This document shows, piece by piece, positions 36,382 to 53,738 of a DNA stretch of 64,000 bases. Origin of the DNA: a virus (lineage: Duplodnaviria; Caudoviricetes); the IMG/VR virus record IMGVR_UViG_3300033066_001528, positions 1-64,000 of that record. One strand, written 5' to 3'. The first letter of the stretch is position 1; the number at the start of each line of letters is the position of its first letter. Under the pieces are notes generated by a model. It made no database searches and was not told the DNA's origin. It worked only from the letters and a program-made list of their open reading frames with translations. The translations under genes and the position numbers were made by a program.

Positions 36382-36449
36382 TGATACCCCGTAATAGGTG
36401 GGATTGTTACCCTTCAGTTACGCCGGGAGAAGGAAAACTGACCCTCGAT

Positions 36450-37196
36450 TCAGATGGAGAATTTAGAGCCCCTAAGAACCCTACAATCGGGAAGAATACC
36501 TAGGGGATTGGGGGTACAATGCTTCTCCCACCACCCCCCCAATTTATTTGATACGACCCTAAAGAACTGACGGTCTTCAGAAAAAACCGAAGGTAGGGCT
36601 TCATGGGGTGTCCGGTCGGTCATCCAGTACAACTTGGAAGGCTCCATTTTCGAGGCTACCCCAAGGGGCTCTTTTTTCAAAGCCCCGAGTGCATCAACGT
36701 CCGTAGTGGTTGAGTCCCACACCCGGCAAGCGCCATTGGTGGAGGCCATGTAAACCCCGTCTTTACGATCGCAATGTCCATCCTGAAGAATACCTTGAAG
36801 GTACTCCAATCGTTGTCTCTGATCATAGGTCAGATCTTCCTTGCTGACCCGACGTAGTTCTGCGAGCTCCTCCAGAATGGATGTCCCACCACCAAACCTA
36901 CCAATGGATCCACCACCAAAGGTAAAACCACTCCCAAACGCGGACCAAAAAGATCCATTCCCGGCTTCGGTATGTACCCCACCCCTCCGCTGCGTTGTCC
37001 CCCCCTGAACCCGACCCTCTGTCACAGTAAGGTAAGCTACCTTTCCTGGGAGAATTGAATCACACATGGCAATGAGAGGAAGATACCCGTGTAGGTCTTC
37101 AGGAATTGTCGCCGGGTCGCCCATGATAAAAGGCATCATGTTGACGGACATAGCACGGGGTTTAGGGAACTGAACAAAATGAAGGGGTTGGTACAT
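36450..37196 (-). CDS. 2OG-Fe(II) oxygenase-like protein (untagged paralog)
   Basis: RRGGVHTE (HxE), TPHEAL (distal His), RQFFRV (2OG-binding Arg); paralog of 50989..51726. Confidence 0.55.
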   Translation of the reverse strand: MYQPLHFVQFPKPRAMSVNMMPFIMGDPATIPEDLHGYLPLIAMCDSILPGKVAYLTVTEGRVQGGTTQRRGGVHTEAGNGSFWSAFGSGFTFGGGSIGRFGGGTSILEELAELRRVSKEDLTYDQRQRLEYLQGILQDGHCDRKDGVYMASTNGACRVWDSTTTDVDALGALKKEPLGVASKMEPSKLYWMTDRTPHEALPSVFSEDRQFFRVVSNKLGGWWEKHCTPNPLGILPDCRVLRGSKFSI

Positions 37197-37233
37197 ACCC
37201 CACTTACGAAAAGAGTTGGACAGAAGGGGAGAG

Positions 37234-38709
37234 TTACTGGGAAAGTTTCATTTTTTCAGCATAAAAAGAAATCACCTTTTCTGCCGTTGAAACATCTGAA
37301 CCGAAAAAGTTCAACCAATGGTCTCGAACCACGGTCAAAAGAGGTACGTGCGTCATCTTGGACCGCTTAATGAATTCCCGAATATGAGCTTGAACTTCAA
37401 GGGGATCCAGAGCATAGTCATTGACGGGGTCTCTTCCTTGAGGCAAAGAGGCGTTTTGCTTTGAGAATTGCACGCTATGAGTCAGCTCGTGGGCCAACAG
37501 TGATGCCAATTCTGCCTGTCCTTCGGATCTCTTGGGGGACAACCACACTTCCACACTCAAATCCCCATAATAGTTGTTACCATCATGATTTTTCCCGGTA
37601 CCTGGATTGTCGGAGTGTCGTGTGAGGACTGATAGGTCCGTAGTTCCGGTTGATTCTAACGAATCCAGAATCCATTGGTCTAAGTTAATGTGAATATGAT
37701 TGTATCTATCCTCCAACACATGAGAACCATCCCTCCATTTCAAACTGGCATCCCGTTTCTGCAGCTTGTAAACGGAGTTACACACAAGACTAGACAGTGC
37801 ATTAGCCAGCTTTGCTACATTGACTTTGGTCCCAAAAGAAGCTGATTTGTCGGATTTGTCATTAGCAGCTTCTAAAACCTTCTGCATGTCTTCATCGGAC
37901 AAACCCTCTGCCATGACATCGTGGATTGCTTGATAGACGTAGGTCAGTAGGATCTCCTGAAGCTCATCTTCGGAAGGACCATCCTCCCCAAATACATACC
38001 GCATCGCTACTCGCTCGGACGCCGGGCGTGCCGAGGCTAGGTGATCGGAGAAATGATGGAGACCGTGAAGAAAAGAGTGACCCACTTCAAAGTGAGTGAA
38101 CCCCTTATCCAGAATATGACTGACAGCTTTGAAGGCCACATGCTTGGCGAAAGAATTACCCAGAGTTCCGGCCATGGCCCCCAAGCCGCCTGTGGCCGCC
38201 ATCACAGTGCCAGCCACAACATAAACTCCAACTGCATAGAGAGCTTTTTTATCCGGTCCCGTCAGCTTCTCCGGTGGCTTCTTAAACACTTTCTTTACAG
38301 CCGATACGCCGTGTTTTATCTCATGAAGCTCTTCTTTGGTAGCGTTCTTCAAAAGAGTGGGGATAGCTTTGGTACCCTTCTTCATTAGCTGAACGGCTTT
38401 ATCTGTAGCCTCTTTGCGGTGATCCTTATCCACTATCAACCGCTGGACTTCTTTTGGAGCTTGTTTGAGGGCTTCCTTCGCTGCTGGGGCTAGGCTCTTG
38501 GCCTTCTCCAAAAATGACGATAGCATCCCTTTGAAGCCTTTGCTTCCACCATCATCTTTCGTGGGTTCGTCTTTTTTGGGCTTGGCATGGGCATCGGCTT
38601 GATCCTTTGTATCAAAGGATTTCGCCTCTCCAGCGGGACTTTGGGATCTCCATTTACCCTCGGGGGTCTTCCAGACCTCTCCGGGGTGTCTTTCTCGCGC
38701 TATCTTCAT
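37234..38709 (-). CDS. Multidomain protein with hydrophobic segment, internal tag B and C-terminal zincin metallopeptidase
   Basis: LAHELTHSVQ...Y..DP.EVQA; internal ASERVAMRY. Confidence 0.65.
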   Translation of the reverse strand: MKIARERHPGEVWKTPEGKWRSQSPAGEAKSFDTKDQADAHAKPKKDEPTKDDGGSKGFKGMLSSFLEKAKSLAPAAKEALKQAPKEVQRLIVDKDHRKEATDKAVQLMKKGTKAIPTLLKNATKEELHEIKHGVSAVKKVFKKPPEKLTGPDKKALYAVGVYVVAGTVMAATGGLGAMAGTLGNSFAKHVAFKAVSHILDKGFTHFEVGHSFLHGLHHFSDHLASARPASERVAMRYVFGEDGPSEDELQEILLTYVYQAIHDVMAEGLSDEDMQKVLEAANDKSDKSASFGTKVNVAKLANALSSLVCNSVYKLQKRDASLKWRDGSHVLEDRYNHIHINLDQWILDSLESTGTTDLSVLTRHSDNPGTGKNHDGNNYYGDLSVEVWLSPKRSEGQAELASLLAHELTHSVQFSKQNASLPQGRDPVNDYALDPLEVQAHIREFIKRSKMTHVPLLTVVRDHWLNFFGSDVSTAEKVISFYAEKMKLSQ

Positions 38710-39191
38710 CAAACACACTCCGGAATAGGAAGAGAACCAGCTACACCCATCTCTATGTCCAAGAGGGCAAAAAAATCATCTATGTCCTCATTGTCAAAAA
38801 ACACACAGTCCAGAAGGAATAAATCATAAGGAAGATGCAAAACACCCATACGAGTGGAAACTTGAACGATGGAATGGAAAATATCTGTAACCTCACCCCA
38901 CCCTAGTGACAGAGACCAGAAAGGAATCCCTAAAGAGGCTCGGATTCTCCGGTGCTGGTTGGGGTGCAAGTATCTGTGTTTTTGTTGACGGTGAAAAACA
39001 CCACTATGACGAACCCGACGGTATCGGCTTTTTGCCCGTCGTTTAATCTGGTTCCGGTGTCTCAGGTAGTTCAACCTAGAGCGCCTGCGAGCCATACCAT
39101 GCTGGATGTGTTGTCTTGCATTTATTTGCAGTGCCATACGTCTTAGCCTGGATATAGGACCGGAAGGGTTGTGATTGCCGTACACCGACAC
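38709..39191 (-). CDS. Arg/His-rich basic protein
   Basis: RRRSRLNYLRHRNQIKRRAKSRYRRVRH; acidic C-terminus. Confidence 0.55.
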   Translation of the reverse strand: MSVYGNHNPSGPISRLRRMALQINARQHIQHGMARRRSRLNYLRHRNQIKRRAKSRYRRVRHSGVFHRQQKHRYLHPNQHRRIRASLGIPFWSLSLGWGEVTDIFHSIVQVSTRMGVLHLPYDLFLLDCVFFDNEDIDDFFALLDIEMGVAGSLPIPECV

Positions 39192-39425
39192 GAAGCTATC
39201 CTGTATGGTTGCCCAAGATGTGGGAAACAGAAGGGATACATTTTAAGCACCAATACGGGAAGTGCGGTGTTCCAGTGCTCCCACTGCACTAAGTTATTCC
39301 TAATCGTTGATGATAGTCTATCCAGGTCCCTTATCCCGGTGGAAGAGAATGGGAGTTTCCATTACCCAGAGGTAGAGCCCCATCCTCTAGGATGTCATGC
39401 GAACGGGGGGGTCAGCGATTTTTGA
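39171..39425 (+). CDS. Small zinc-ribbon protein
   Basis: CPRCG...CSHC; start uncertain. Confidence 0.45.
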   Translation: MIAVHRHEAILYGCPRCGKQKGYILSTNTGSAVFQCSHCTKLFLIVDDSLSRSLIPVEENGSFHYPEVEPHPLGCHANGGVSDF

Positions 39426-39894
39426 GATAACCGAGAAGAACCCTATTTTCTGAGGTGTCGTCCAAAAAAGATACGGACATCGTGAGCAGATAGGTACAAT
39501 ATGCGTCCCCCATCTCAAAATCCGCAACGGTCACTTCGGGATTCGATATCGCGGTAGAAGTAGGTGTGAATTTAGGAAGAAGGCTTTTTATGGATCGGAG
39601 GATTAACCTACTTCGGTTAGGTGGTAACCAATTTGGATTCGTTGTTGGGTCCGGGGTATCTTCCGGATAATAGAGAATTACGGAAACAACTCCCCCATCT
39701 CCTTTGCCGACAACAGTGACATCCCCGACAAGAACACCCCTTAAACCTCCAGATCTAATAATAGAACCCAGTCGCTCACGGGAAAAAGCAGACTCCAACC
39801 ATTGGACTTTCCGGCTTTTCGTATCCGGTGGCTTACGGTCAAAAAACCAAGCATGTCTAATCATATAACGTTCTGCTACTTTGCGAGATGGCAT
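39412..39894 (-). CDS. Hypothetical protein with N-terminal tag B
   Basis: MPSRKVAERYMIRHA. Confidence 0.6.
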   Translation of the reverse strand: MPSRKVAERYMIRHAWFFDRKPPDTKSRKVQWLESAFSRERLGSIIRSGGLRGVLVGDVTVVGKGDGGVVSVILYYPEDTPDPTTNPNWLPPNRSRLILRSIKSLLPKFTPTSTAISNPEVTVADFEMGDAYCTYLLTMSVSFLDDTSENRVLLGYLKNR

Positions 39895-39933
39895 TATGAA
39901 AGGAGAGTGGATAGAAACAAACAAATGAATACC

Positions 39934-40725
39934 TTAGCCAGTCTCCAAGACGGCCTGTAATTCAGGGTGTCTGTAAATCGCTGAACCGACAAAACAAACG
40001 AGGTTAGAGACCGGACGGTAAACGCGCTCACTGTGTGTGTGCCCGCACAGAACCATAAACTGAACATTAGGATATTCCCGAGCCAAACAAAGAAGCTCTT
40101 GCCCCAACCTCAAGTTGCAATAAAAAGGAAGGTACGAACTGGGGGTAGGAGAAGAGAAATGGAAACAGGATTGAGGGAACGGTGGGAAATGTGTTGCAAC
40201 CACAATCATCTTGGCTCGGGAAGCCACATCTTTGACTCTTTTCGATATCAAATGGGTGTGGTGATCCGCCCTTCGTTGATAGAGGGCCAGCCTATCAGAC
40301 GAGTTCATTGAATTAAGTCCTGGTATCTCCCCCAATTCCGCCATACGAATCCTAGACCCGGAATAATCCCCGGCCCTCCCATCGTACCAGCCATCCACCC
40401 CAAGCAAGTAAGATCCATCCCCAAAGTGAATGGGTTCCGAATTTGTCAAATAGGTAAGGTCCAACGAGTGATAGTCGGCCATCACCTTATCCGTGGCCTC
40501 AAAAGTCAGATGCCAGTAATCATGATTCCCGAGAACAAAATCAATGGGAATCCTAATCCTATTCTGAAGGCGGCCAAGGTCGGATAAAACTCGACGAGAG
40601 GTGGAGTTATCTCCAGTTAACAGGAGACGATCTACCTTTGCATTTTGAATGGATTGAACAAACCGAAAAAAAGAATCTTCGGATACACAATCCAAATGAA
40701 TATCGGTTGCCCAAGCTAATCGCAT
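39934..40725 (-). CDS. Calcineurin-like metallophosphoesterase
   Basis: DIH, GD, GNHD, THFPP and GHTH motifs. Confidence 0.9.
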   Translation of the reverse strand: MRLAWATDIHLDCVSEDSFFRFVQSIQNAKVDRLLLTGDNSTSRRVLSDLGRLQNRIRIPIDFVLGNHDYWHLTFEATDKVMADYHSLDLTYLTNSEPIHFGDGSYLLGVDGWYDGRAGDYSGSRIRMAELGEIPGLNSMNSSDRLALYQRRADHHTHLISKRVKDVASRAKMIVVATHFPPFPQSCFHFSSPTPSSYLPFYCNLRLGQELLCLAREYPNVQFMVLCGHTHSERVYRPVSNLVCFVGSAIYRHPELQAVLETG

Positions 40726-40730
40726 TGGAA

Positions 40731-41525
40731 TTATAGGCAGGCGCCAACGGATCGAGTGTAGGCTAAAGAAAGGTCCCGGTCCAAACGATCCTGATATTTC
40801 TCCCCGTAGAGGGGGTTATCAACGGCAACACGCACCCTACTCTCTACGTCTGTTGAAAAAGGATCTAGGGGACCATGATAATGGATCTCTAGAATTGTAG
40901 ACCCGCTATCCGGACCAAGACCCCCCGCCACACCAAGACCGAACCCATGCTCCCTGGCCATGGGCTCCAGGTGATGAAGGATTTCATACCATAAACCCGG
41001 ACTAGAAGGCTTGCCATTCCCACCGGAAAAGTCAATTAGAGCATAGTCCATAAGGCCGGTGTAGGAACGAAGGTACTGGGCCACATTCTCCGGAGTTCGT
41101 TTTGAACCAATTGAAGACCCATTCACCTGAAGGATGATTTTCACATTCGGGAACATATCCCTCACCAAACGAATACTAGAGGGATCCGGCTTAACCACAT
41201 TCAACTGGATGCCACCACTAAACCCCTTAAAAACCCCCAAAAGATCGCGGAGTTGGATCATAAGGGATCGGTCATCACCTCCCGTATTGTAGTGGATGGC
41301 GGGAAAGACCCCCCCAATCAGCGAAAGGGATTCGATCAACCGAACGGCCGTTCCAACTTTAGGGTAGCGACGGTTAGTGACGGGTACATGCTTGAGTGTT
41401 TTTCCACTCACCAAAACACCAGCCATCACCAAGTGAGAGGCCGGAGCAATAGCTCTGCACTCCCGGATAGTATCCACATCATCAGGGGTAACAACACCCG
41501 TGATACCTAAGTAGGGAAGAGTCAC
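40731..41525 (-). CDS. Phosphoribosylanthranilate isomerase (TrpF)-like TIM barrel
   Basis: IQLN, LIDFSGGNG, GVAGGLGPD and DVESRVR. Confidence 0.7.
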   Translation of the reverse strand: MTLPYLGITGVVTPDDVDTIRECRAIAPASHLVMAGVLVSGKTLKHVPVTNRRYPKVGTAVRLIESLSLIGGVFPAIHYNTGGDDRSLMIQLRDLLGVFKGFSGGIQLNVVKPDPSSIRLVRDMFPNVKIILQVNGSSIGSKRTPENVAQYLRSYTGLMDYALIDFSGGNGKPSSPGLWYEILHHLEPMAREHGFGLGVAGGLGPDSGSTILEIHYHGPLDPFSTDVESRVRVAVDNPLYGEKYQDRLDRDLSLAYTRSVGACL

Positions 41526-41953
41526 ATCAAAGACCTTTCTCTGGTTTTACCACCCGAGGTGCAATCCAATCTCTCAAACACAAGGGGCCTATCCGTCACG
41601 TTCCACCCGTTCCCCACGAAGTAGTCTCGGATCTCAGACTCTGTAGCGGAGTCAGGAACCCCACCTTTGAATGCAGTTTTCGGATAATGGACCCACCTAT
41701 CACCTTCGCGGACAAAGGACACCGTGATAAGGGGCACATGCTTTATCACGAAAGCAGTCATGTCGCGGAACGCAAGGAAAGACCAATTATCACGAAGAGC
41801 CAGCTCCAAAGCTTCCACGGAAGTGGTGATACCCCGGGTGTTGGGAATAGAAATCTTCCCCCGGGCCGTTTGAACGAACCAGGACGGTGCATAATCAAAC
41901 TCAGGGGTAAGCTCCATTACAAGAGAACCAACGGCGGGTGCTGTATTCATCAC
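41522..41953 (-). CDS. Hypothetical protein
   Basis: Start and stop overlap both neighbours. Confidence 0.55.
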   Translation of the reverse strand: MMNTAPAVGSLVMELTPEFDYAPSWFVQTARGKISIPNTRGITTSVEALELALRDNWSFLAFRDMTAFVIKHVPLITVSFVREGDRWVHYPKTAFKGGVPDSATESEIRDYFVGNGWNVTDRPLVFERLDCTSGGKTRERSLM

Positions 41954-43269
41954 GTCACCTTACGACGCTGAATGTTAGAGTAGCACACAGGAACCGCAAG
42001 ATTGATTTTGTCCGTGGAACGAGCCCCAAAAGAAGCAATACCTACCTTGGACCCAAGCATCGCACTCACCTTATCTACCACGGAATACGGATCCAGGAAA
42101 TCACCCGAAGCGATCATTGTTTCGATCTCAGGACGAGCCGTTCGGAGCAAAGCGGTATTGGAATCCTGATAAAGCATATCGTCTGCCGGAGTGGGAGACG
42201 CAACTAGACCGGGAAAATCCGGCCTATATGCATCAACATACTTCCAGGTATTTTTCACCGCATCTAGATGGGATAGTGCAATAGAATCAACCCCACCAAT
42301 AGCCTCCAGTGAGTACCGGAAGAGAACTGCATCAAAATGACCCTGACGAAACGGACCCTGCCAACCGGCCGGGCTGTTATGGTATTCGGGATTATTCAAC
42401 GAAGCCTCTGTCGGAAACGGACCCTCTCCGTGACGAGTCATGTATGTCCGAAGACAACCAATGACGTGCGTATTCCCCGAAAAGTCAACTTCATTTAGAA
42501 GTCGCATGGCATTTCTTGGTGTTGTGTCAGACCAAGTGGTATGAGGGTGAAACCCATGCCACTTATCCAGCAGAACCCCCTGTGCCCCCTCGAAAATAAG
42601 AGGCTTTCCAGAAGCCACCAGATTTTTCATATAGGAAGTTTCATCAACAGTGTGGAGATTCCGAAGAAAACCAGCCATCCTGTCTTTGTAAGCTTCGGGG
42701 TCGAACCGCACGGACTCAAACCCCATCTCCACGGCAAAAGCATTGGCAAGGTCCATCTGCAAACGGAGTTTACGGGACAATGTATCCGGTGTATGAAGAT
42801 CCACCACACGGATCGTGGCTTCAGGATTGGTGTAGGACATGGAGACGGACTCCCCAAAACCCATACCACAAGTACCATGACGATCTTCGCCGCGAGCCAG
42901 TTCGCGAGTTCGATTCATTGCTTGGTGGAGAGGGGTGATAACCAGGGCCCCCATCGAAACGTCCAAAAGAGAGAAAGGATCACGAACCCCCTTGGAGGAA
43001 AGGACTTCAGACTCTCGAATCATGGCTGTAGGGTGAATAGCCATGTATCGACTGAGGAAAGTTCGGCAACCATGAAAAGTTGCCGAACCCCACTGGGCAA
43101 AAGTGTGATGCCGACCATCACCAGAAATGACGTTGTGCCCAGCCTGGGCACCACCGTTGTGACGAATGACAGTAGACCCCGGGTTGACGGAGGCAAGGAA
43201 GTCAACCGTCCCCCCCTTACCCTCATCACCAAACGCCAGACCCGTAACGATGTATGCTGTTTGGTTCAT
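41950..43269 (-). CDS. Divergent adenylosuccinate synthetase (PurA-like) family protein
   Basis: FGDEGKG, GGAQAGH, FEGAQG, HPHTT and TRHGEGP present; aspartate-binding loop and TKLD motif altered. Confidence 0.88.
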   Translation of the reverse strand: MNQTAYIVTGLAFGDEGKGGTVDFLASVNPGSTVIRHNGGAQAGHNVISGDGRHHTFAQWGSATFHGCRTFLSRYMAIHPTAMIRESEVLSSKGVRDPFSLLDVSMGALVITPLHQAMNRTRELARGEDRHGTCGMGFGESVSMSYTNPEATIRVVDLHTPDTLSRKLRLQMDLANAFAVEMGFESVRFDPEAYKDRMAGFLRNLHTVDETSYMKNLVASGKPLIFEGAQGVLLDKWHGFHPHTTWSDTTPRNAMRLLNEVDFSGNTHVIGCLRTYMTRHGEGPFPTEASLNNPEYHNSPAGWQGPFRQGHFDAVLFRYSLEAIGGVDSIALSHLDAVKNTWKYVDAYRPDFPGLVASPTPADDMLYQDSNTALLRTARPEIETMIASGDFLDPYSVVDKVSAMLGSKVGIASFGARSTDKINLAVPVCYSNIQRRKVT

Positions 43270-43304
43270 GGCCTCTCTTACGCGGAGGCCATGATAGTTG
43301 ATTT

Positions 43305-44243
43305 CTAAAAATTCTCTCGAAAATCGGGTGGGGGAGTACCGGACTTCCCAATACTATTTGCGTACGGAGTCAAAGACCGAACAATTGGCCCCAAGAGGTC
43401 CGATGGCACACCATTGGCCTTGAGGCTGTCCGCATAGGCAATGAGATCCGATACCTTTCCTTCGGTGAGAGCCACCAACCCTGCCGACACATATGAGGTA
43501 ATCCCATCGGCATAGAGTTGGATAACCCTATCCCCCAGAAGCTCACGCCAACGGGCAACTACTTTCTGATGACCATGGTTGTAGGGGATTAGGAAAAAAG
43601 TATGATACTTCTCCCCCAATTCTTGGAAGATATGACCCGTAGGGATATCCTTGTTGATTTTCGAGGACATCCAAGTTCGAACAAGATTGGCCTGAACAAA
43701 TGGAAAAGGATTGTCATCTCCAGTGAAAATGGCATAACCTTTTCTGCCCCGCCGAACAAAGTTGTCCGTCTCCGTGTGGCGGGATAGGAAATAGGCTGCA
43801 AGGTCGTAGCTTTCTCCACCATTACCACCACCCCCACCCTCCAGAAAGCACCACGTCAGCCACTGATCCATGCCGGATGCGGTGGACTCGAACTGACCAA
43901 CTTGAAGAGGGGCCTTTTCGTATCCAGTAATAGCGTCACCTACGGCCATAAAAAGAACCTGTGGGTCCGGTACCCCCACGTTCATTAAAACTTGCATGAA
44001 TTGGGGAAGCTCTTTTTTGGCAAGATCCTTAGGTATATCCCCCATGGATCCTGTCTCATCCAAAACAAAAGCAATGGGCAGTGAATTCGGATGATCCTCC
44101 GAATCCCTAGATTCACGGAGATTCACATTCCGGGGATCCATAAGCGAATGCAGGGAATGGTGGAAAACAGTCTCCACCGGAATAGCCGCGCGAGTAGAGA
44201 CAATCGCGGCATGGTCTTCCATACTATATCCACCGTAACCCAT
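43305..44243 (-). CDS. vWA-domain protein
   Basis: DETGSMG, EGGGGGNGGESY and FTGDD; AAGGAG Shine-Dalgarno before MGYGGYS. Confidence 0.8.
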   Translation of the reverse strand: MGYGGYSMEDHAAIVSTRAAIPVETVFHHSLHSLMDPRNVNLRESRDSEDHPNSLPIAFVLDETGSMGDIPKDLAKKELPQFMQVLMNVGVPDPQVLFMAVGDAITGYEKAPLQVGQFESTASGMDQWLTWCFLEGGGGGNGGESYDLAAYFLSRHTETDNFVRRGRKGYAIFTGDDNPFPFVQANLVRTWMSSKINKDIPTGHIFQELGEKYHTFFLIPYNHGHQKVVARWRELLGDRVIQLYADGITSYVSAGLVALTEGKVSDLIAYADSLKANGVPSDLLGPIVRSLTPYANSIGKSGTPPPDFRENF

Positions 44244-44400
44244 ATCACGTCTCCTTCTTATCGTTTGAGGGAACGGAGTCATTGCACCCGTCCCCATATG
44301 AAATCTCACCGGGTGTGTTCACCACCCTGGTGATAGGTGTGTATTCCTGTACCCCATCGTCATCAGTGTCTTTTGAAGTATACAAACTCTGTCCCATGAT

Positions 44401-44616
44401 TCAAACCTCAACTTTCCAAGTAGTGAACACTACGTCTCCAGACGTACGAACAACGGGTTTCCCGAAGGTCCCAGGAACTGTTACGTGGGGCCATAGAGTA
44501 GTGACCACTTCCATTGGATCTATATCCGAGACATCCCCGAGACCCTCAAGGGATAGGAAAGTGGACACACCCACACGTGACCAAATGCCACCCAGAATTC
44601 TCTCTTTACTTGTCAT
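44401..44616 (-). CDS. Small hypothetical protein
   Basis: ATGA overlap with the upstream kinase-like gene. Confidence 0.5.
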   Translation of the reverse strand: MTSKERILGGIWSRVGVSTFLSLEGLGDVSDIDPMEVVTTLWPHVTVPGTFGKPVVRTSGDVVFTTWKVEV

Positions 44617-45437
44617 TTACCACCCATAGTGAAGTTGTGGTATCTGTTACCCCCATAAAGGTTTTTAGCTAAGGTATCTACTTGGACCAAGAGATCCCAG
44701 GCGTCTTCCGACCATTTTCCTTGGGCGACATTGGTTATCAATGTCTCCAAACCCTTAGAAACGCCAGCAGGAAGCCCCTTCTCATCCCCACCCAGAACCC
44801 GATAGACACATCGGGCCGACATGATGATGTCCGTTGAAGGAGTGATCGAACCCCCATCCCACACGTCTTTGGGGTAGTAGAACTCATATCCGGGACTTCG
44901 AGCAACGAGTCTGCTACCAATTTTCGCAGTCCTAGACCATCCTGCCAATACAAGCCCGTGATCCCTAGGGTGAATCAGTAGATGCTGAGGGGTACACGAG
45001 GAATGAACATACCCCGCAAGATGAAGCCACCCCAAGAAGGAAAGAGCTCGCTTCCACATCCACAGAGCCGTCCTTTCATCTACTCCGCGGGGATACTCTC
45101 GAAATACATCCTCGAATGTGTACTGAAATCCAGTACGCCAAAGATATTTGTTTGCAAAGGTTGTTTCCGATTTCCGCTGAATTTTCACCGTGGTTAAAAA
45201 TGGAGGCAAAAAAGAACTGAAATAATCGGATCCTTTAACGGAAGAATTAGCAAGCTCACATACAACGGAAGCCTCACGCCTCAAAAGATCCACCGATTTG
45301 GTCTCCGTACCCCGGGGGATTTTCAGAACCACCATTTCCTTAGGCTCCTCCCGTTGAGTATAGAAAACGTCACAAAACTCCCCGTCCCCAACCTGACCTA
45401 GAATGGTATAAGAGTCACCATTGATTTGAACTCTCAT
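44613..45437 (-). CDS. Protein-kinase-fold protein, probably a pseudokinase
   Basis: VGDGEFCDVF, VVLK and REA retained; catalytic loop is HSSCTPQH and DFG position is AGW. Confidence 0.75.
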   Translation of the reverse strand: MRVQINGDSYTILGQVGDGEFCDVFYTQREEPKEMVVLKIPRGTETKSVDLLRREASVVCELANSSVKGSDYFSSFLPPFLTTVKIQRKSETTFANKYLWRTGFQYTFEDVFREYPRGVDERTALWMWKRALSFLGWLHLAGYVHSSCTPQHLLIHPRDHGLVLAGWSRTAKIGSRLVARSPGYEFYYPKDVWDGGSITPSTDIIMSARCVYRVLGGDEKGLPAGVSKGLETLITNVAQGKWSEDAWDLLVQVDTLAKNLYGGNRYHNFTMGGK

Positions 45438-45811
45438 TGGGATATCCTTTCGAAAAAGTACAAAAGACCCATAGCCATCTCGATTGCTTGATCTTTTGTA
45501 CAAGACAATTTATCCTGAATCCACTGCTGAAGATGATGGAGTTTTGGGATCCCACCACCAGTAGAAAGGGTCATACTGATTCGTGGGCCCAAAGGCCCCG
45601 AACCAGCCTTAACGACCCCGGACACCTCCAGCCAAGTGATGAGGTATGTATGGGGTCCAAGACCATAGAGGCTAGCCGACAGCCAATCCATCGGAGCTAT
45701 ATGTAGGGTAAACCGAGGCCCTGCACTCCGTGTTTGCACCGTTCCGGAACACCCGTACAAAACTACAAGGAAGGTATCCGTGATAAAATGCTGGGATTCC
45801 ATACTGACCAT
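45434..45811 (-). CDS. Hypothetical protein
   Basis: TAATG overlap upstream and ATGA overlap downstream. Confidence 0.5.
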   Translation of the reverse strand: MVSMESQHFITDTFLVVLYGCSGTVQTRSAGPRFTLHIAPMDWLSASLYGLGPHTYLITWLEVSGVVKAGSGPLGPRISMTLSTGGGIPKLHHLQQWIQDKLSCTKDQAIEMAMGLLYFFERISQ

Positions 45812-47547
45812 TACCCGCAAGTAACGATCAGGGTTTTGGCCTTCACATCATATTCGTGACCCAAGTACCTTGTGCGATGGCCCTGACGGAAAGCTACCTC
45901 GTGAGGCCACAAGTATTGAGGTACGGAACACATCTTGTCTCCAATTTTAACCTTCACTTTTACGGGGAAGTCAATTTGAGTGTCACTACCCTTGGGAAAC
46001 ATACCCACAATGCTCTCCACCCCCCAAGCCCGAAGAATGGATTGTGGTAGCATTTCCCGAATCCCCTCAAACCACCTATCTCTTAAGTAACCCCGGAGTT
46101 TGGTCCCATTAGCATCGATCAAGTACCCACAAAGAGACTGAGAAGTGAGAAATTCTCTGTCCTCCATGATAGGGGAAAGAAGCTCCCGAACTTCAGGGTT
46201 CCCACTTACAACAATCCGTACATTCTCCCACTCTGGAAGCATAAGAAAATGCATCCGATGGGTGGACAAATCAGAGTAGGGGGTGGGAAGAATATCAATT
46301 GAGTCCGGAGGGTAGCCAACGTCACTCAGGGCTACCCGAAGCATTTCGGCAACTACCCATTTGGGAAGAGGATCCTGGTCAGTCCAGGTATAGGATTTTT
46401 GAAGGGTGATAACGGGACGAAAACCCAGCTCAAGCACCCTAGCAATGAGGTTGATATGTCCCTTATGTGGAACCCCGCATCGCATTGGGAGTAGTGCTTT
46501 AGGTCTGCACGAAGTGGTGCGTGAAATGTAGAACTTCGTAGTAGAGAAATGACGAACCACGTCATCTGCAGTCGGGCGATCCGCGGGGTCTTTGGCCATC
46601 ATCCTACGGAGCAGACTAACCATAGTGGGGGGGATGCCCACCTTTGCCTCATACGGATCAGCTATGTGAGCAACAGCATGTTCCCTGGCGGCACCAAAAA
46701 ATTTGGTATTCTTGCCCACAAACGGGTGATCCCCAGTGAAAAGTTGGTGTGCCAGAACCCCCAGAGCCCAGATATCACTAGCTGGAGAAGCCTCTCGCCT
46801 GGAAAACGTCTCAGGAGCGGCATAGACGGGATCCACCAGATAGGTTCCAATCGTTGACCCTAGTCCGCATCTACGTGAATGACTGAAGTCAAACAGAGCC
46901 CCACTGGTAAGGACGTTGGATTTCGATAGATCCATGTACAAAACCCCAGCCTCGTGAAGGAAGCGAAGGTTTTCTGCCACTTTACGAACAATCTCTTCGG
47001 CAAACCGAGAGGAGGGGATAATATCGGAGAGGGTTTCCCCACGTTCAAATAGCCGAAGGATAACTTTACCTGAAAGGAGCTTATAGGGCCTGTGAAGACA
47101 ATCTAAAATACTATCCTCTCGATCAGCCCTATCCCCCAAGGGTCCCGAAGACTCGTCCCATAGCTCTTTTGCAATATGCACCCCACCATTAGTGTCACAC
47201 ACCGATGCCACTAAACGATCGGCCTTTGGGGAAGACAAAAGGGATAGGAAAGTTAGCCCATTTTGAGTTAGGCATTTGCGGAAAGACTCAATACCCATGG
47301 ACTTAGGTGCTGGGGCCCTCTTCCAGGGAGGAATATCCAGAATCATATCCGGGGGGCAAAGTCGATTGAAATCGACCAGAGCCTTTTCGTCCCGAAGAAC
47401 AGCCAGAACACTTCGAATATCCCTTAAGGATTTAGGGTCATGAAGTGCGACCACAATCGCTTCCTGGAATCGAAAAGGCTCGCTCTCAACCGTGGAGAGA
47501 AGGAAAGGGACGATGTAATCGGGGGGCATCGGGGGTATTACCCCCAT
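45811..47547 (-). CDS. Ser/Thr protein kinase fused to NadM/NMNAT-like HxGH nucleotidyltransferase
   Basis: Kinase: YMDLSKSN, DFS, YAAPE, SDIWALG, RPTA. NTase: PHKGH, TDQDPL, SGNPEV, NGTKLR. Confidence 0.8.
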   Translation of the reverse strand: MGVIPPMPPDYIVPFLLSTVESEPFRFQEAIVVALHDPKSLRDIRSVLAVLRDEKALVDFNRLCPPDMILDIPPWKRAPAPKSMGIESFRKCLTQNGLTFLSLLSSPKADRLVASVCDTNGGVHIAKELWDESSGPLGDRADREDSILDCLHRPYKLLSGKVILRLFERGETLSDIIPSSRFAEEIVRKVAENLRFLHEAGVLYMDLSKSNVLTSGALFDFSHSRRCGLGSTIGTYLVDPVYAAPETFSRREASPASDIWALGVLAHQLFTGDHPFVGKNTKFFGAAREHAVAHIADPYEAKVGIPPTMVSLLRRMMAKDPADRPTADDVVRHFSTTKFYISRTTSCRPKALLPMRCGVPHKGHINLIARVLELGFRPVITLQKSYTWTDQDPLPKWVVAEMLRVALSDVGYPPDSIDILPTPYSDLSTHRMHFLMLPEWENVRIVVSGNPEVRELLSPIMEDREFLTSQSLCGYLIDANGTKLRGYLRDRWFEGIREMLPQSILRAWGVESIVGMFPKGSDTQIDFPVKVKVKIGDKMCSVPQYLWPHEVAFRQGHRTRYLGHEYDVKAKTLIVTCG

Positions 47548-47557
47548 TTGGATGAAT

Positions 47558-48628
47558 TTAGCTTAGGAGATCGGAGAGCATACCCTGAATTTCTTCCTCA
47601 GTCATGACTCCGGGAAGGTAGAGCTCGGCAAAAGCTCGAATCCTAATCTTCGCCATATCATCCGTTCGCACACCGAAGATAGGAGAAGAAAGCCATTTTG
47701 CATACAGGGCCGCCAGAAACATTTGGATGGACTGCTTCCCGGCATTACGGGCCATACAGAAGAGAACAGCGTTGGCCACGATGCCGTTCCGATGTGTGGC
47801 CTCTTTAATTGAAGAGAGATCAATGAAGTTACGAGCAACCTCAACGGAATCGAAAACACCAGGAGATGTCTCGAAAAACTGCTTCTGCAGGGGCACCATT
47901 TTTGGATCCGAACCGGATCCAATAAGGATGAACTTCCCATAGGTTCTGCGAATAGCCTCCATGGATCTCCGCCATGAAACCTGATCCGGACATCCATCAT
48001 CACTCTGAAGGCCCATCCCGTGACCCACCACATCGGTCACGAGAATAACCGTGCGATCCTGGACAGGAATTTCGCCAAAATCGATCTCGCTTGCTCGAAG
48101 GAGAGCACACTCTACGGCCTCTGCCTCATCATCACCGGAAGCGCCTCGGATCTTGAGAAAGCTATTGTAGAGCTGCTTATCCCCCTTCTCATTGGCAGAA
48201 GCGAAGTCCGCATATTGAAACAAAAGGTCCCCGTCGCAATGGTCACTGAAGTAAATGAAGGCCACCTCTGCACGGGCATCCACGGATTGAGCAAATGCAG
48301 TGAAATGACCGGAAGACTTCAGGAAATGCTCCGCAATAGCCCGGTTGCTACCGGAATTATCAACCAGAACCACCACGGCTCTTTTTGCCTCCTTAGAGGG
48401 AGAGGTAATGGTGTTCTTGGCTTGTGTGGAGTCGTACAACTCACGAGTGTCCCTTTCCGGAACGGAGGACTTTGACACACGGCCGTGAAGGATATCCTCC
48501 CTGGCCTTCGCCCGACCGGCACGATACTCCGCATAGGCTCGTGTTCTTGTTTCATAGTTACTGTCGGTAATATCCGACAGACTCTCAAGAGCACGAGAAG
48601 ACCCACCGAAACTGTTTCCAGATCCCAT
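47558..48628 (-). CDS. vWA-domain protein
   Basis: LVDNSGSN, GDDEAEAVE and LVTD; likely start MGSGNSFGG. Confidence 0.75.
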   Translation of the reverse strand: MGSGNSFGGSSRALESLSDITDSNYETRTRAYAEYRAGRAKAREDILHGRVSKSSVPERDTRELYDSTQAKNTITSPSKEAKRAVVVLVDNSGSNRAIAEHFLKSSGHFTAFAQSVDARAEVAFIYFSDHCDGDLLFQYADFASANEKGDKQLYNSFLKIRGASGDDEAEAVECALLRASEIDFGEIPVQDRTVILVTDVVGHGMGLQSDDGCPDQVSWRRSMEAIRRTYGKFILIGSGSDPKMVPLQKQFFETSPGVFDSVEVARNFIDLSSIKEATHRNGIVANAVLFCMARNAGKQSIQMFLAALYAKWLSSPIFGVRTDDMAKIRIRAFAELYLPGVMTEEEIQGMLSDLLS

Positions 48629-48661
48629 TTTATTGAACTTTCTGAGGTTAGTAGAAAAGCA

Positions 48662-48704
48662 GGAAAGGGTGGATAACCCACAACTCGGGTTATCCACCCT
48701 TTCC
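48662..48704 (-). terminator. Perfect 18-bp stem-loop (terminator or processing stem)
   Basis: GGAAAGGGTGGATAACCC-7nt-GGGTTATCCACCCTTTCC right after the stop at 48706, followed by TGCTTTT on the minus strand. Confidence 0.65.
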
Positions 48705-48705
48705 G

Positions 48706-49929
48706 TCAACGGCGAGCTTTTACCTCACCGGGGAAAGAACCGAAGGGTTCTTCCCGACGAACAGGGCTAACACGATCCGGTGTACCCGTGCGAAGGGCGA
48801 CAATAGACTGCGACCCCAGGAGGTAGAGGTGCTGTGCCATGGTAGCCAGGGTAGCATCCGGCACATTAGGAATGTCAAGAGCGTTGAGGACGAACTCACC
48901 GAGAGAGATGCTAGCGCGAGCTTCTGCCTCGGAAAGAGTCACCCCCAGCCCACGCTTCATCTCGTCCAGAGTCTTGAAACCAGCCGCATCCATGTATGTC
49001 GGGTCACGGAGGAGATCCACGAGGTCTACAGCATCCTTGGCCATGATACGAACGGAAGCGAGATAGTTAAGACCACGGAAAGTCTTGTTCACCGCGTCAG
49101 CAAATTCTGCCGCCGCCGAGCGAAGGGACGCAACTTCCACGGTATCGGGAACAAAACCACTGAGACGATTGGTGAGAGCGTCAATCAGATGGCTAGGGTC
49201 AGCCTTCTGGAGACGGACCTGATCGTACCAAGTAGCGAGGGCGTCGTAGAAACGAAGAACCCCTGGAACAAAAATGGTATCCAAACGGGCGAGGAGACGC
49301 TTACGGTCAGCCGCACCAACGGACTTCGCCGGAACCTTCATGGCACGGAACAGAGGAGCAAAGTCCTCCGCTTGAACGTCATCCATGAGCTTGTAAACCC
49401 GCTCGGCATCGGCCGGAACGTCAAGAGCCTCAGCCGCATCCCCGATCTTCTCCAGAAGTTTCGACCGGAGGGTGTAAAGGTTAGCCTTATTGGCAAAACT
49501 AACCCGAAGTGCAGCTACTGCATCAAGGTGCGTGACCTGACCATTAAGGGTACCACCAGAGATAAGGCCCGAAAGGAACGAAGCGTCATCCCCCAACCGC
49601 TTCAGAACACTTGTGGCCGGAACAACCGCCGGAACAACCGTCGAAACCGAAGGTGTAGACGGGACGATGGACTCACGAAGAGCTTTCACCGCGGCACGAA
49701 GAACCGGGGGCTTCGCCGTAGGAAAGGTCGCCACGGGGAACATACTTGACCAGTCGGCATCGGTTACCGTGGTAGAATCCCCGAGAATGGAAAGGGATGC
49801 GTCACTTCGATCATTGACTGACGAAGCAAGGACAATTTCGTCTACCTTTGCCAGATCAACACCGATCGCCGCAGCGAAGGTAGCCAGAACAGTCGAGAAC
49901 CGAGAGGTCGAAACAGTTGTATCACTCAT
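48706..49929 (-). CDS. Hypothetical helical protein
   Basis: 407 aa; AAGGA Shine-Dalgarno; first gene of the vWA-kinase run. Confidence 0.7.
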   Translation of the reverse strand: MSDTTVSTSRFSTVLATFAAAIGVDLAKVDEIVLASSVNDRSDASLSILGDSTTVTDADWSSMFPVATFPTAKPPVLRAAVKALRESIVPSTPSVSTVVPAVVPATSVLKRLGDDASFLSGLISGGTLNGQVTHLDAVAALRVSFANKANLYTLRSKLLEKIGDAAEALDVPADAERVYKLMDDVQAEDFAPLFRAMKVPAKSVGAADRKRLLARLDTIFVPGVLRFYDALATWYDQVRLQKADPSHLIDALTNRLSGFVPDTVEVASLRSAAAEFADAVNKTFRGLNYLASVRIMAKDAVDLVDLLRDPTYMDAAGFKTLDEMKRGLGVTLSEAEARASISLGEFVLNALDIPNVPDATLATMAQHLYLLGSQSIVALRTGTPDRVSPVRREEPFGSFPGEVKARR

Positions 49930-50013
49930 ACAGTTTTCCTTAGTAAATGTTGGGTGGGGCCACTAACCCCGTGCAACCACAGTTACGACTAACCCAGAAA
50001 ACTGGAGAGGAAA

Positions 50014-50415
50014 TCAGGGGTATGAATTAGCGTTCTCAGACGGCATCAAATTCACAAAGTATCGGTGTGAGGCCACCGACCGACGTTCTGCTTCTTTCTT
50101 AAGGTCATCCAAGGCCACCCCCAGAAGCTGGTCCAATACCATAGCGTCCCCAAGAAGTCTGGCCCTAACGGTTTTTTCTGGTACTCCAGTAGCAAAACTA
50201 ATGCGACGCACGGACCCCTCAAGTGATCGGGTGAGGAGGCCACGGTAGGAATCCAGCCCCTTCTCCCACTGGCCCACGGAACGATAAAAAGGTTCTGCCG
50301 GGTTCATTCGTCCAGTATGAGCGGCTAGGATGGGGAGAAGATGCTTTCTTGTTTCCGGCTTATCATGGGCCAGACGTACAAGCTTTGAGTAAAGGCCCGG
50401 CATAGGGTTAGTCAC
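50014..50415 (-). CDS. Hypothetical protein with tag A
   Basis: LYSKLVRLAHDKPETRKHLLPIL. Confidence 0.7.
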   Translation of the reverse strand: MTNPMPGLYSKLVRLAHDKPETRKHLLPILAAHTGRMNPAEPFYRSVGQWEKGLDSYRGLLTRSLEGSVRRISFATGVPEKTVRARLLGDAMVLDQLLGVALDDLKKEAERRSVASHRYFVNLMPSENANSYP

Positions 50416-50956
50416 CTATCCCAAAAGAGGAATCTTCCCAAATCCAGACGTTCGGCCCCCGAACACGCCACCCGGAACCCCTATAGCTGGTAGATCCAGG
50501 AACCCCACCCCCAGTAATCTGGAACAACTTTGGCATGACCAGAGCAATCGCCTCGGCAAAATTCGGGTCAACCTCGGACTTAACGACGTACCCACTGTTA
50601 TCAGACCAAGCTTCCTGTGTAGACCACATACCCATTTGTGCAAGGGCACCTTCTTGGAAGGTTTTAGAAGCTAAGTTTAGCCGTACCAAGCGAACGAATT
50701 CCTTTAAGGTACGGTACATACCACGAACACCATCCTTCATGTAGTCCGGAACGATGTTCGGATTCACCTGATCATTTTTCGCAGTAACAACTATCTCCCC
50801 ATTTGTGTATGTGAAAGTTAAGAGGAGGGTAGCCCGATTGATTCCGTTCCCAATCTGCATGGGAACCGCAGCTTCCTTAAGTATTGGTAGAAGATGCGGT
50901 CTGAGGGAAGGATTTTGATGGGCTAGGCGGATAACTTTGGATCTAAGGGTCGTCAT
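50408..50956 (-). CDS. Hypothetical protein with tag A
   Basis: MTTLRSKVIRLAHQNPSLRPHLLPILKEAA. Confidence 0.75.
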   Translation of the reverse strand: MTTLRSKVIRLAHQNPSLRPHLLPILKEAAVPMQIGNGINRATLLLTFTYTNGEIVVTAKNDQVNPNIVPDYMKDGVRGMYRTLKEFVRLVRLNLASKTFQEGALAQMGMWSTQEAWSDNSGYVVKSEVDPNFAEAIALVMPKLFQITGGGVPGSTSYRGSGWRVRGPNVWIWEDSSFGIGD

Positions 50957-50988
50957 ACCATAAAAGAAGGAAACAACAAATTAACGAG

Positions 50989-51726
50989 TTAGAATTTTGA
51001 TCCTTCAATGATTGGGCAGTCCGGTAACACACCAAAAGGATTGGGGGTGTTGTGTTGCTTGAACCACCCACCAATCTTATTGGAAACCAACCTGAAAAAT
51101 TGACGGCGAGTGTCCTTAGACACTCGCAGGGCCTCATGAGGGGTTCGGTCGGTCATCCAATACAAGTAGTTGGGTCTCATCTTCTCACTCAACCCCGAAG
51201 GGGAAGTCATTAATGCTCCGTGCTTGTCTACTTTACCAGCAGAGCAGTCCCATATTCTACAAGATCCATCCGTTGAAGCCATGTAGATACCATCCCGAAT
51301 CGCACAACCCTCTTTTTGACCTTTACCCCAACCCCCGCCCCATCCTGAATGCAGAGAACCCTTCCCCCAGCCCCCACCCCATCCACCCTGCTTTGTGGAA
51401 TCGTAACTTTCCGTATGTATACCGCCACGTCTCTGAGAGTCTCCGGATTTAACTAAGCTCTCATGAACGGTAAGGTAAGCCACCTTACCTCTCTCAATCG
51501 AGGAACACTTATCAATCATCGGAAGGTAACCATGCAAATAACCAGGAATTGTTGCTGGGTCACCCATGATGAAAGGCATCATATTGATAGACCTACCTTG
51601 AAATTCGGGAAACTGAACTGATCCAATCCGTCGGTAATGTTGCGTTTCCAATAAAGGAAGAAGATCCTTTCGCAAGGAAGGATTTTGATGGGCCAGACGA
51701 ATAAGTTTGGATCTAAGGCTTTTCAT
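50989..51726 (-). CDS. 2OG-Fe(II) oxygenase-like protein with tag A
   Basis: MKSLRSKLIRLAHQNPSLRKDLLPLL followed by a domain paralogous to 36450..37196. Confidence 0.65.
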   Translation of the reverse strand: MKSLRSKLIRLAHQNPSLRKDLLPLLETQHYRRIGSVQFPEFQGRSINMMPFIMGDPATIPGYLHGYLPMIDKCSSIERGKVAYLTVHESLVKSGDSQRRGGIHTESYDSTKQGGWGGGWGKGSLHSGWGGGWGKGQKEGCAIRDGIYMASTDGSCRIWDCSAGKVDKHGALMTSPSGLSEKMRPNYLYWMTDRTPHEALRVSKDTRRQFFRLVSNKIGGWFKQHNTPNPFGVLPDCPIIEGSKF

Positions 51727-51750
51727 ACCTGGAAAGCCACTAGAAAAAGT

Positions 51751-53121: not shown

Positions 53122-53129
53122 AACAACCC

Positions 53130-53387
53130 TTAAGCGTCTACGATATAGCCTAAGTCTTCCAAAGTATCCAAAAGATCATCGTAGCCAATTGTGCGACCAA
53201 AAGAAACGGTCAGACGGTCATGCTTGGGTTTGGTGCGGATCCCTCTCTTGGAGAGATCGCGGAATAGCCTATCCAAGTCATCCGCATCTAGGAAAGCGTA
53301 CTCGTCCGCATTGGTAACGGTAACCAAATTTCCGGTGTTCCCGGACTTACGGAGGAAAGCTACAACAATTCTTCTTGCAAGGGTCAT
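53130..53387 (-). CDS. Small protein with tag-B-like N-terminus
   Basis: MTLARRIVVAFLRKSG; ferredoxin/HMA-like ending LEDLGY. Confidence 0.55.
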   Translation of the reverse strand: MTLARRIVVAFLRKSGNTGNLVTVTNADEYAFLDADDLDRLFRDLSKRGIRTKPKHDRLTVSFGRTIGYDDLLDTLEDLGYIVDA

Positions 53388-53417
53388 ACGACCGAAAGAA
53401 GATAGGAAAGGAATTGC

Positions 53418-53738
53418 TCAGATATCACGGGAAGGTGGGACACATGGAGTGTATCCAACCAGGGCATAACAGTCACCATCCACGTCACAGAAGCAATGGT
53501 CCTCGGAAGGCCAGCAGTGACGAATTCTTTCCGACTGAACACCAACGGGTTCACCACGGCCGTTAAGCCGTACATCCTCCGGGCAAACAGAGGGAGCGTC
53601 TGCGTCCACCTCTGGTAGATCAACGGATCCATCGGACCCCAAAGATGGAATCTCCAAACCAATGTCGGTTGGGGTTGCAGGAGAAGAACAATCCTTGCAA
53701 CCAAAAATGAAAGCAAGTATCAGAGCATATCGTTTCAT
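53418..53738 (-). CDS. Putative Cys-rich lipoprotein
   Basis: MKRYALILAFIFGC lipobox-like signal; Cys-rich C-terminus. Confidence 0.55.
   Translation of the reverse strand: MKRYALILAFIFGCKDCSSPATPTDIGLEIPSLGSDGSVDLPEVDADAPSVCPEDVRLNGRGEPVGVQSERIRHCWPSEDHCFCDVDGDCYALVGYTPCVPPSRDI

Follow-up and report, generated by a model that had tools for sequence, protein, structure and literature searches.

Diverged oxygenase-like paralogs, one with and one without a portable N-terminal tag, in a huge-phage contig

Why would a phage encode the same type of enzyme twice, once on its own and once behind a portable N-terminal peptide? This question is raised by two genes in the first 64 kb (64,000 nucleotides, here called the window) of the 123,912-bp IMG/VR virus record IMGVR_UViG_3300033066_001528. 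An original prediction, made from the letters of the window, described them as copies of an oxygenase-like enzyme of which only the second carries a tag, and read the pair as a natural experiment in which one gene copy had acquired tag and late promoter as a unit, giving a cytoplasmic and a virion-delivered version. CheckV puts the completeness of the record at 29%, implying a genome of ~430 kb. The minus strand holds almost all genes of the contig, which encodes a major head protein (contig 77274-78155; phrog_2522 match, E 3e-48), a portal protein and a large terminase (contig 88120-95120), and recombination and nuclease genes. The two genes in question are as follows.

36450..37196, minus strand: untagged paralog, 248 amino acids; open reading frame (ORF), double-stranded beta-helix (DSBH) core from residue 1, phrog_8970 match
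50989..51726, minus strand: tagged paralog, 245 amino acids; ORF, tag at residues 1-29, DSBH core at residues 30-245, phrog_8970 match

We compared the two proteins by BLASTP and found 43% identity (E 2e-58); every block of near-identity quoted in the original prediction was found in both. Only the protein from 50989-51726 starts with the tag, while that from 36450-37196 lacks it. As judged from their sequences, the two genes are true, diverged paralogs. Their arrangement is not an artefact of a single-sample assembly, since near-identical DNA was found in wastewater and river metagenomes from several studies; one river run covered all 30 bins of the interval 35500-53500, and in several public runs the word share of this phage is as high as 61-100%. 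Over most of this interval, the untagged gene included, there are metatranscriptome contigs from three wastewater RNA libraries of two studies, with bin 51126-51726 empty, but as assembled contigs with possible DNA carry-over they have no bearing on expression or timing.

We modeled both copies with AlphaFold2, using a 99-sequence alignment, and searched each model against 48,161 PDB representatives. As the original prediction had anticipated, both models are DSBHs (tagged copy: predicted local distance difference test [pLDDT] score, 88.6; predicted TM score [pTM], 0.85; untagged copy: pLDDT, 89.0; pTM, 0.80). In each search, 2-oxoglutarate (2OG)/Fe(II) oxygenases make up almost the entire top 50. 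For either copy the best match was EvdO2, with 157-159 aligned residues and a root-mean-square deviation of 4.6-4.8.

EvdO2 (4xac): Z 9.3 for the tagged copy, 9.1 for the untagged copy
ThoJ (6zyl): Z 9.0 for the tagged copy, 8.2 for the untagged copy
HrmJ (9dq0): Z 8.6 for the tagged copy, 8.5 for the untagged copy
ColD: Z 8.2 for the tagged copy, 8.3 for the untagged copy
KanJ (7cl2): Z 8.1 for the tagged copy, 7.9 for the untagged copy
PhyH (human, 2a1x): Z 8.0 for the tagged copy, 7.9 for the untagged copy

Prolyl hydroxylases and ribosomal oxygenases scored Z 7-8. Foldseek ranked the same oxygenases first, with E values just above 1e-3, and the nearest annotated structure in the ESM Atlas was a PhyH cluster (TM score, 0.50). 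According to the models, then, PhyH-like enzymes are the nearest fold neighbors. EvdO2, ThoJ, HrmJ, KanJ, and human PhyH share with the phage copies a DSBH over ~155-170 aligned residues (Z 8-9.3) and the order HxD/E, distal His, and Arg 11 residues later on the next strand. In contrast to them, the phage family, which has no sequence or profile similarity to these enzymes, has motifs of its own: an N-terminal NMMP strand motif, a WGGGxWGG loop after HxE, and a conserved C-terminal W...H...TPNP segment. Prolyl 4-hydroxylases (PHD2, 2y33; Dictyostelium PHD, 6t8m; PBCV-1 vCPH, 5c5t; Pseudomonas P4H, 4iw3) also share the DSBH (Z 7.1-8.0) but differ in the composition of their inserts and have no sequence similarity to the phage copies. 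AlkB (Z 6.3 and 6.8), ALKBH7 (6.1 and 6.0), and ALKBH6 (6.5) fell well below the PhyH-like and prolyl-hydroxylase rows, so the suggestion that the enzymes act on nucleic acid found no support here; TET/JBP enzymes were not among the 50 rows listed in either search.

A 2OG-Fe(II) dioxygenase had been suggested on the basis of HxE..H..R residues. These are indeed the invariant positions of the family: His104, an acidic residue at position 106 (72 Glu, 27 Asp), His197, and Arg208 (tagged-copy numbering) are each present in 99/99 homologs, and all four residues (His, Glu, His, and Arg) are kept in both paralogs.

51409..51417, minus strand: HxE of the tagged copy (His104 and Glu106), from homolog conservation
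51103..51138, minus strand: distal His197 and Arg208 of the tagged copy, from 99/99 homologs and the model strands
36966..36974, minus strand: HxE of the untagged copy (His75 and Glu77); His75 invariant in alignment A4
36570..36605, minus strand: distal His198 and Arg209 of the untagged copy; invariant in A4, strands 198-200 and 207-215

In the tagged copy, His197 and Arg208 lie 11 residues apart on consecutive strands (197-199 and 206-214). A distal His followed 11 residues on by Arg, across consecutive strands, is the geometry of PhyH and TauD. Because the DSBH, the His-x-Glu...His triad, and the 2OG-binding Arg are intact, as far as sequence and models can tell, both copies are most likely active hydroxylases or oxidases. 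We conclude that the family is very probably a new, virus-centered branch of the 2OG/Fe(II) oxygenase superfamily.

The loops that follow HxE differ between the copies, as had been noted: the tagged copy has a duplicated GWGGGWGKG, and the untagged copy has a Phe/Gly stretch and a helical insert.

51292..51408, minus strand: Gly/Trp-rich loop of the tagged copy with two GWGGGWGKG units; low model confidence (pLDDT 48-54 over residues 110-140)
36759..36965, minus strand: loop of the untagged copy, a disordered Gly/Phe stretch (pLDDT below 50 at residues 85-104) and, behind it, an insert of two helices (107-116 and 124-138)

Across the family, a Gly/Trp-rich segment of variable length and low model confidence (consensus WGGGxWGG) stands directly after HxE and is often followed by a low-complexity linker; no part of these proteins varies more than the loop that leads from HxE to the next strand. 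In the untagged copy and its orthologs, Gly repeats with Phe in place of Trp precede the insert, which is seen, for instance, in P0009. Tandem Repeats Finder detected no DNA-level repeat under the two GWGGGWGKG units of the tagged copy. The family's variable loop takes the place, behind the HxD strand and ahead of the following one, where prolyl hydroxylases such as PHD2 have their substrate-gripping finger loop. The two phage copies differ in the part of the protein most likely to set substrate choice.

The family is large and almost entirely without annotation. Both copies match phrog_8970, a family of unknown function (untagged copy: E 2.1e-26, profile positions 4-199 of 205; tagged copy: E 4.8e-34, positions 5-200 of 205), and Pfam had no match for either copy or for any of the 99 homologs; F-box-like matches among these members were weak (E 0.016). 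A word-indexed search returned 263 homologs, all hypothetical and many on contigs of 300-470 kb. A hidden Markov model (HMM) search of 1.84 billion cluster representatives returned 1,917 at E ≤1e-3 and 585 at E ≤1e-30; the resulting figure of ~1,900 family clusters is counted at 50% identity. Among 185,579 prokaryote species genomes, the family was found on just three contigs of metagenome-assembled genomes (MAGs), one of which, at 443 kb, is probably phage. A match on the Jiella pelagia chromosome was rejected as a chance-like alignment of 44 residues where an unrelated ORF begins. Members occur in Salicola phage SCTP-2 (gp479, 44% identity) and Pseudomonas phage Noxifer (gp264, 27% identity), and structure comparison added Catovirus (CTV1 A0A1V0S8Z7; TM score, 0.72; 35% identity), Orpheovirus, Ralstonia phage RPSC1, and Erwinia phage pEa_SNUABM_47, all uncharacterized. 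The four phages (SCTP-2, Noxifer, RPSC1, and pEa_SNUABM_47) are jumbo phages in culture, and Catovirus and Orpheovirus are giant viruses. The SCTP-2, Noxifer, and Catovirus proteins belong to the same family as the window's copies but are annotated as hypothetical or uncharacterized, lack the tag, and occur as a single copy per record. Further members lie on a giant-virus MAG and on many short eukaryote-like contigs, there with long N-terminal extensions. The family is essentially confined to viruses and eukaryote-like contigs. No gene neighbor was conserved across 41 family loci.

The long members (among P0121, P0240, P0104-P0120, and L054-L102) have features of their own. Their N-terminal extensions share a GTLD..SPLS.LRGN-like motif, and the eukaryote-like contigs are metatranscriptome-style; no Pfam domain was found in the extensions of eight long eukaryote-like members. 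Among P0121 (1,923 amino acids), P0240 (2,384 amino acids), and related long members are four tandem family copies within one protein.

We then turned to the tag. It begins 12 ORFs of the contig, those of the tagged oxygenase and at least 11 others, and an alignment of eight tags has 12 invariant columns. It is modeled as an amphipathic two-helix hairpin. A further 75 tag loci were found on ~40 related huge-phage records.

51640..51726, minus strand: N-terminal tag of the oxygenase, 29 amino acids, aligned with 7 other tags; modeled helices 2-14 and 16-27; His30 replaces the core's native Met
50408..50956, minus strand: next gene downstream of the tagged oxygenase, 182 amino acids, tagged; its tag is the closest at the DNA level
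50014..50403, minus strand: second gene downstream, 129 amino acids, with a diverged tag

Three tagged genes thus stand in a row, with starts at 51726, 50956, and 50403. An L-x-E motif directly ends the tag in 6 of the 12 proteins, and the rest have a Glu 3-10 residues later or none. The prohead protease model PF03420 had no match in the contig and three relatives, and the positive control was equally silent.

The tag was absent from all 252 family proteins that we fetched and from the family gene and its flanks at 16 IMG/VR loci and 80 metagenome loci; among ~350 members or loci checked, the window's copy is the only tagged one. This agrees with the view that the tag was added to one gene copy. 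The oxygenase family was absent from 15 tag-bearing phage records (2.9 Mb, including one 485-kb genome that is 92% complete), in a search that recovered both copies from the window's contig as a positive control. Given these two absences, the family is by its distribution an accessory gene in the tag-bearing clade, and the tagged form is lineage-specific.

Tag and enzyme are joined with precision: in the alignment, His30 of the tagged protein takes the place of the Met that starts the untagged copy and most homologs, which begin with MY. The DNA of the tag is 70% identical over 87 nucleotides to that of the adjacent gene starting at 50956 and 49-61% identical to the other ten tags. This points to a local origin, with the adjacent tagged gene as the probable source of the tag. 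We built a maximum-likelihood tree from 75 members (leaving out P0001, a truncated own call, the near-identical P0006, proteins of >300 amino acids, and matches ranked below 75), in which the untagged copy groups with P0009, P0010, and P0053 (support, 99; 69-73% identity). The tagged copy belongs to the same clade of 20 members, but the tree gives it no firm position there.

Two groups of observations concern tagged genes elsewhere in the contig and their surroundings. Two tagged genes (contig 85823-86170 and 87289-87915) lie directly downstream of the portal gene (88120-91407), whose product has 1,095 amino acids with a portal match limited to residues 835-1040. Two genes upstream of the one for the major head protein, the contig encodes a very acidic protein (pI 4.5; contig 79071-80627, minus strand) with three to four DEDEALLAAML-type repeats. 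This protein is a candidate for the scaffold and could be the receptor of the tag, which is basic and amphipathic; a complex prediction for the tag and the protein's acidic repeat region scored 0.01, which has no bearing either way.

The two oxygenase genes had also been said to follow different upstream motifs, and this is the case.

37204..37208, minus strand: CGTAA, a class A element, 7 nucleotides before the ATG of the untagged copy
51739..51755, minus strand: GGTAA-N7-CTAGT, 12 nucleotides before the ATG of the tagged copy; 51751-51753 is the stop codon of the upstream gene, and CTAGT is a class B element

The CGTAA before the untagged copy belongs to a real, position-fixed class. Class A, defined as [CG]GTAA 6-10 nucleotides before the start, precedes 11 of the 128 primary starts, compared with 1.0 expected (P 7e-9), and ~15 genes if nearby alternative ATGs are allowed. 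Its carriers include the untagged oxygenase, an exonuclease, a helicase/ExoV-like protein, two homing endonucleases, and the gene at 41950-43269.

Window 29204, 37196, 41953, 43269, 48709, 59654, and 62299, minus strand: class A gene starts
Contig 77102, 104449, 106530, 110596, 111597, and 121543, minus strand: class A gene starts

The TAA of class A is mostly not the stop codon of the preceding gene, and the element often lies in or beside a small hairpin ending at the start codon. The strongest such hairpin spans 43266-43294, and GUAA as a loop belongs to the GNRA type. At the loci of related tag-bearing phages, class A is nearly absent (1/170). It may serve as a promoter, as a processing site, or as a signal for translation.

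The composite site described before the tagged copy fared less well. The string is present and its CTAGT fits class B, but GGTAA-N7-CTAGT does not recur: it occurs once in the window, where chance gives 2.2 matches at ≤1 mismatch, and its TAA is the stop codon of the gene at 51751-53121. Class B, a CTAT/CTAG-type pentamer 11-14 nucleotides before the ATG, precedes 5 of 11 tagged genes and 11 of 118 others (P 0.0046). CTAGT also occurs 12 nucleotides before the tagged gene starting at 86170 and, as a looser fit, 18 nucleotides before the portal gene. In related phages, CTAT lies 10-40 nucleotides upstream of 22/50 tagged genes versus 17/120 other ORFs (P 5e-5), with CTAT[CA] peaking 13-14 nucleotides before the ATG and often preceded by CGTTTGA.

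In the same upstream regions of related phages, a composite CGTTTGA-N4-5-CTATCC recurs (L106, L133, L136, L141, L147, L158, and others; 15-40 nucleotides before position 1501). Of 51 regions, 16 have CTATC (2.3 expected) and 6 have CGTTTG (0.4 expected), and some sites read GATAGCCTATC, an inverted repeat.

Hence, at the level of sequence, the two copies sit behind different recurrent elements, and that of the tagged copy is common to other tagged genes. For the late promoter of the original prediction, the single hint is that CGTAA-type elements precede DNA-metabolism genes and that CTAGT also precedes the portal gene. A scan for sigma-70-type promoters in 36000-53500 found 12 sites (16.6 expected), none of them before either oxygenase gene, and no terminator-like hairpin was found between either oxygenase gene and its upstream neighbor.

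What, then, might the pair do? Our best explanation as a whole, to which we give somewhat less than an even chance, is that these are 2OG-oxygenase paralogs, one addressed by a tag and most likely loaded into the prohead, the other free. One copy would have been fused in frame, at its start codon, to a portable peptide of ~29 amino acids in this phage lineage, and would now stand in a run of three tagged genes behind a CTAT/CTAG-type element. The untagged enzyme would be made with the DNA-metabolism gene class and act free in the infected cell. The tag would load its cargo into the prohead, and the tagged enzyme would enter the next cell together with the DNA. Targeting of the virion by the tag is a real possibility, although we lean against taking it as given. 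It is suggested because the tag is N-terminal and portable, because Glu often follows it, because two tagged genes lie right behind the portal gene, and because phage T4 offers a precedent: proteins unrelated to one another enter the T4 head by means of a short targeting sequence at their N-terminus, and the ADP-ribosyltransferase Alt is packaged in the head and then ejected (PMC9026906). More doubtful is the full sequence of events, in which the tagged copy would be a virion-packaged oxygenase, injected with the DNA, that hydroxylates a host target at time zero, with its untagged twin continuing the same or related chemistry later.

As many as 57% of residues differ between the copies, as does the entire loop beside the metal site, so substrate specificity may differ too; a paralog pair with and without the tag is present in one genome, as the original prediction held, but because of these differences it is weakened as a clean experiment. 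Several observations weigh against the explanation above. The structural Z of ~9 only moderately exceeds the search tool's stated background of 7-8, and the spatial clustering of the His/Glu/His triad is inferred from sequence and strand order. None of the 99 members matches a Pfam 2OG family, and hhalign of the family profile with three Jiella PhyH proteins gave a probability of 1.9% and no usable alignment. Since the PhyH HMM PF05721 was also silent in a six-frame search of the contig, the family is not a member of Pfam PhyH; a PDB sequence search with the family profile returned nothing below E 0.68. Only about half of the tagged proteins have a Glu close behind the tag. The tree would allow either an old duplication in the lineage or two separate acquisitions. 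Class A precedes 0/11 tagged genes and 15/118 others, a difference that is not significant (P 0.36), and the CTAT-type pattern is degenerate and also found before untagged genes. Finally, both oxygenase genes lie only 24-37 nucleotides behind the preceding gene and may for that reason be co-transcribed with it.

The alternative that survives best keeps the same enzyme and makes the tag a docking or assembly handle to a hub inside the cell (for example, a compartment built by the phage, a site on a membrane, or a scaffold for several enzymes) rather than to the virion; both paralogs would then act in the producing cell, one free and one tethered. An amphipathic two-helix hairpin on many small unrelated proteins, amid the enzyme genes at 29-62 kb, is what such a handle might look like, and there is no conserved cleavage site at a fixed position. 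However, tagged genes cluster beside the portal gene and close to the head module, a portable peptide at the N-terminus with Glu often behind it fits the capsid-targeting precedent, and no candidate hub is known. We consider this alternative unlikely, if a serious contender.

Alternatively, what sets the copies apart might mainly be their substrates: they would be isozymes, taken up perhaps in separate events from other huge phages, for which tag and upstream differences would be secondary as regards timing and location. The identity of only 43% is in keeping with this, as are the closer orthologs of the untagged copy in the tree, the unplaced branch of the tagged one, the complete difference in the family's most variable loop, and the accessory nature of a family that 15 tag-bearing relatives lack. 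The tag, however, is strongly conserved over 12 proteins here and dozens in relatives, and for this reason it should have a function wherever it is present. Mere isozyme divergence thus seems improbable to us as the main explanation, but it is compatible with the tag-addressed reading and not exclusive of it.

Very unlikely, in our view, is a cupin-like binding or structural role, in which the proteins would retain a metal site without being 2OG-dependent oxygenases. The silence of the Pfam 2OG models and the moderate structural Z scores would suit such proteins, and non-oxygenase cupin-like proteins such as YjgK also appear in the match lists. Against this, named 2OG oxygenases occupy nearly all of the top 50 rows in both searches, and the invariant Arg that follows the distal His by 11 residues is a mark of 2OG binding rather than of cupins in general.

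That Met49 is the real start of the tagged gene and the tag an untranslated remnant is scarcely credible: the record's own gene call begins there (P0001, 197 amino acids; window 50989-51582), but the tag is intact and in frame, begins at the first ATG of the open frame, and opens 11 other genes, and the first strand conserved in the family lies at residues 30-48 (Phe39 in 98/99 and Pro40 in 99/99 homologs). As a start at Met49 would remove both the tag and this strand, the long form of 245 amino acids is the better call. The public call has the consequence that database copies of this protein lack the tag, and tag-bearing proteins elsewhere may be under-called through the same kind of start choice.

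Several neighboring features are recorded here for the same stretch. Each oxygenase gene stands behind a gene for a protein with an HExxH motif. The two upstream proteins were considered as duplicated partners and rejected, as they have no detectable homology (E 0.55).

51751..53121, minus strand: gene upstream of the tagged copy, 456 amino acids, HExxH (HELQH); no family match
37234..38718, minus strand: gene upstream of the untagged copy, 494 amino acids, HExxH (HELTH); metallopeptidase-like Pfam matches below the cut-off

Farther away, window 54029-56107 encodes a 692-amino-acid fusion of a GNAT acetyltransferase, a "Swiss Army Knife" RNA-repair-type HAD domain, and a DUF6782-like metallopeptidase segment, and window 45811-47547 encodes a eukaryotic-type Ser/Thr kinase domain (Pkinase, E 6e-26) in a protein of 578 amino acids. 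The strongest terminator-like hairpin of the region (window 48662-48704, minus strand), a perfect 19-bp stem with 10 GC pairs and a T-rich tail, lies at the junction of the genes at 48706-49929 and 47558-48709. Window 4930-10026 encodes a protein of 1,698 amino acids, perhaps a tail protein or a lysin carried by the virion, in which an endolysin-like segment at residues 989-1112 (phrog_3513) is all that matched.

How does the pair compare with what is known? The enzyme family is a new branch of a known superfamily, and the arrangement parallels a known T4 theme. The T4 proteins ModA and ModB, paralogs of Alt, are unpackaged and made after infection. In both phages, one enzyme family has one member with an N-terminal peptide and others without; the T4 proteins are ADP-ribosyltransferases, whereas the copies described here are oxygenase-like, and packaging and cleavage of Alt were shown experimentally, whereas packaging of the tagged oxygenase is a proposal. 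The tag also resembles the T4 capsid targeting sequence (CTS) of the internal proteins IPI-III in being N-terminal, portable, present on unrelated proteins of one phage, and often followed by Glu. It differs in length (~29 amino acids with two helices, compared with 7-10 amino acids for the CTS), in sequence, and in predicted structure.

What is added here is the fold and family of the tag's cargo, the fusion junction, the local origin of the tag, the uniqueness of the tagged form, and two classes of upstream elements. A sizeable family listed as hypothetical in databases, without a Pfam model, thereby gains a fold and a probable chemistry, and the paralog pair offers a built-in control for the function of this clade's portable tag, with the same type of enzyme present with and without it. 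If the tag is a head-loading signal, the Alt/Mod logic of T4 would extend to oxidative chemistry and to phages of ~400 kb. If the tagged copy is indeed injected, it would be the first injected 2OG-oxygenase effector of a phage and would suggest a function for a large enzyme family common to huge phages, giant viruses, and protists.

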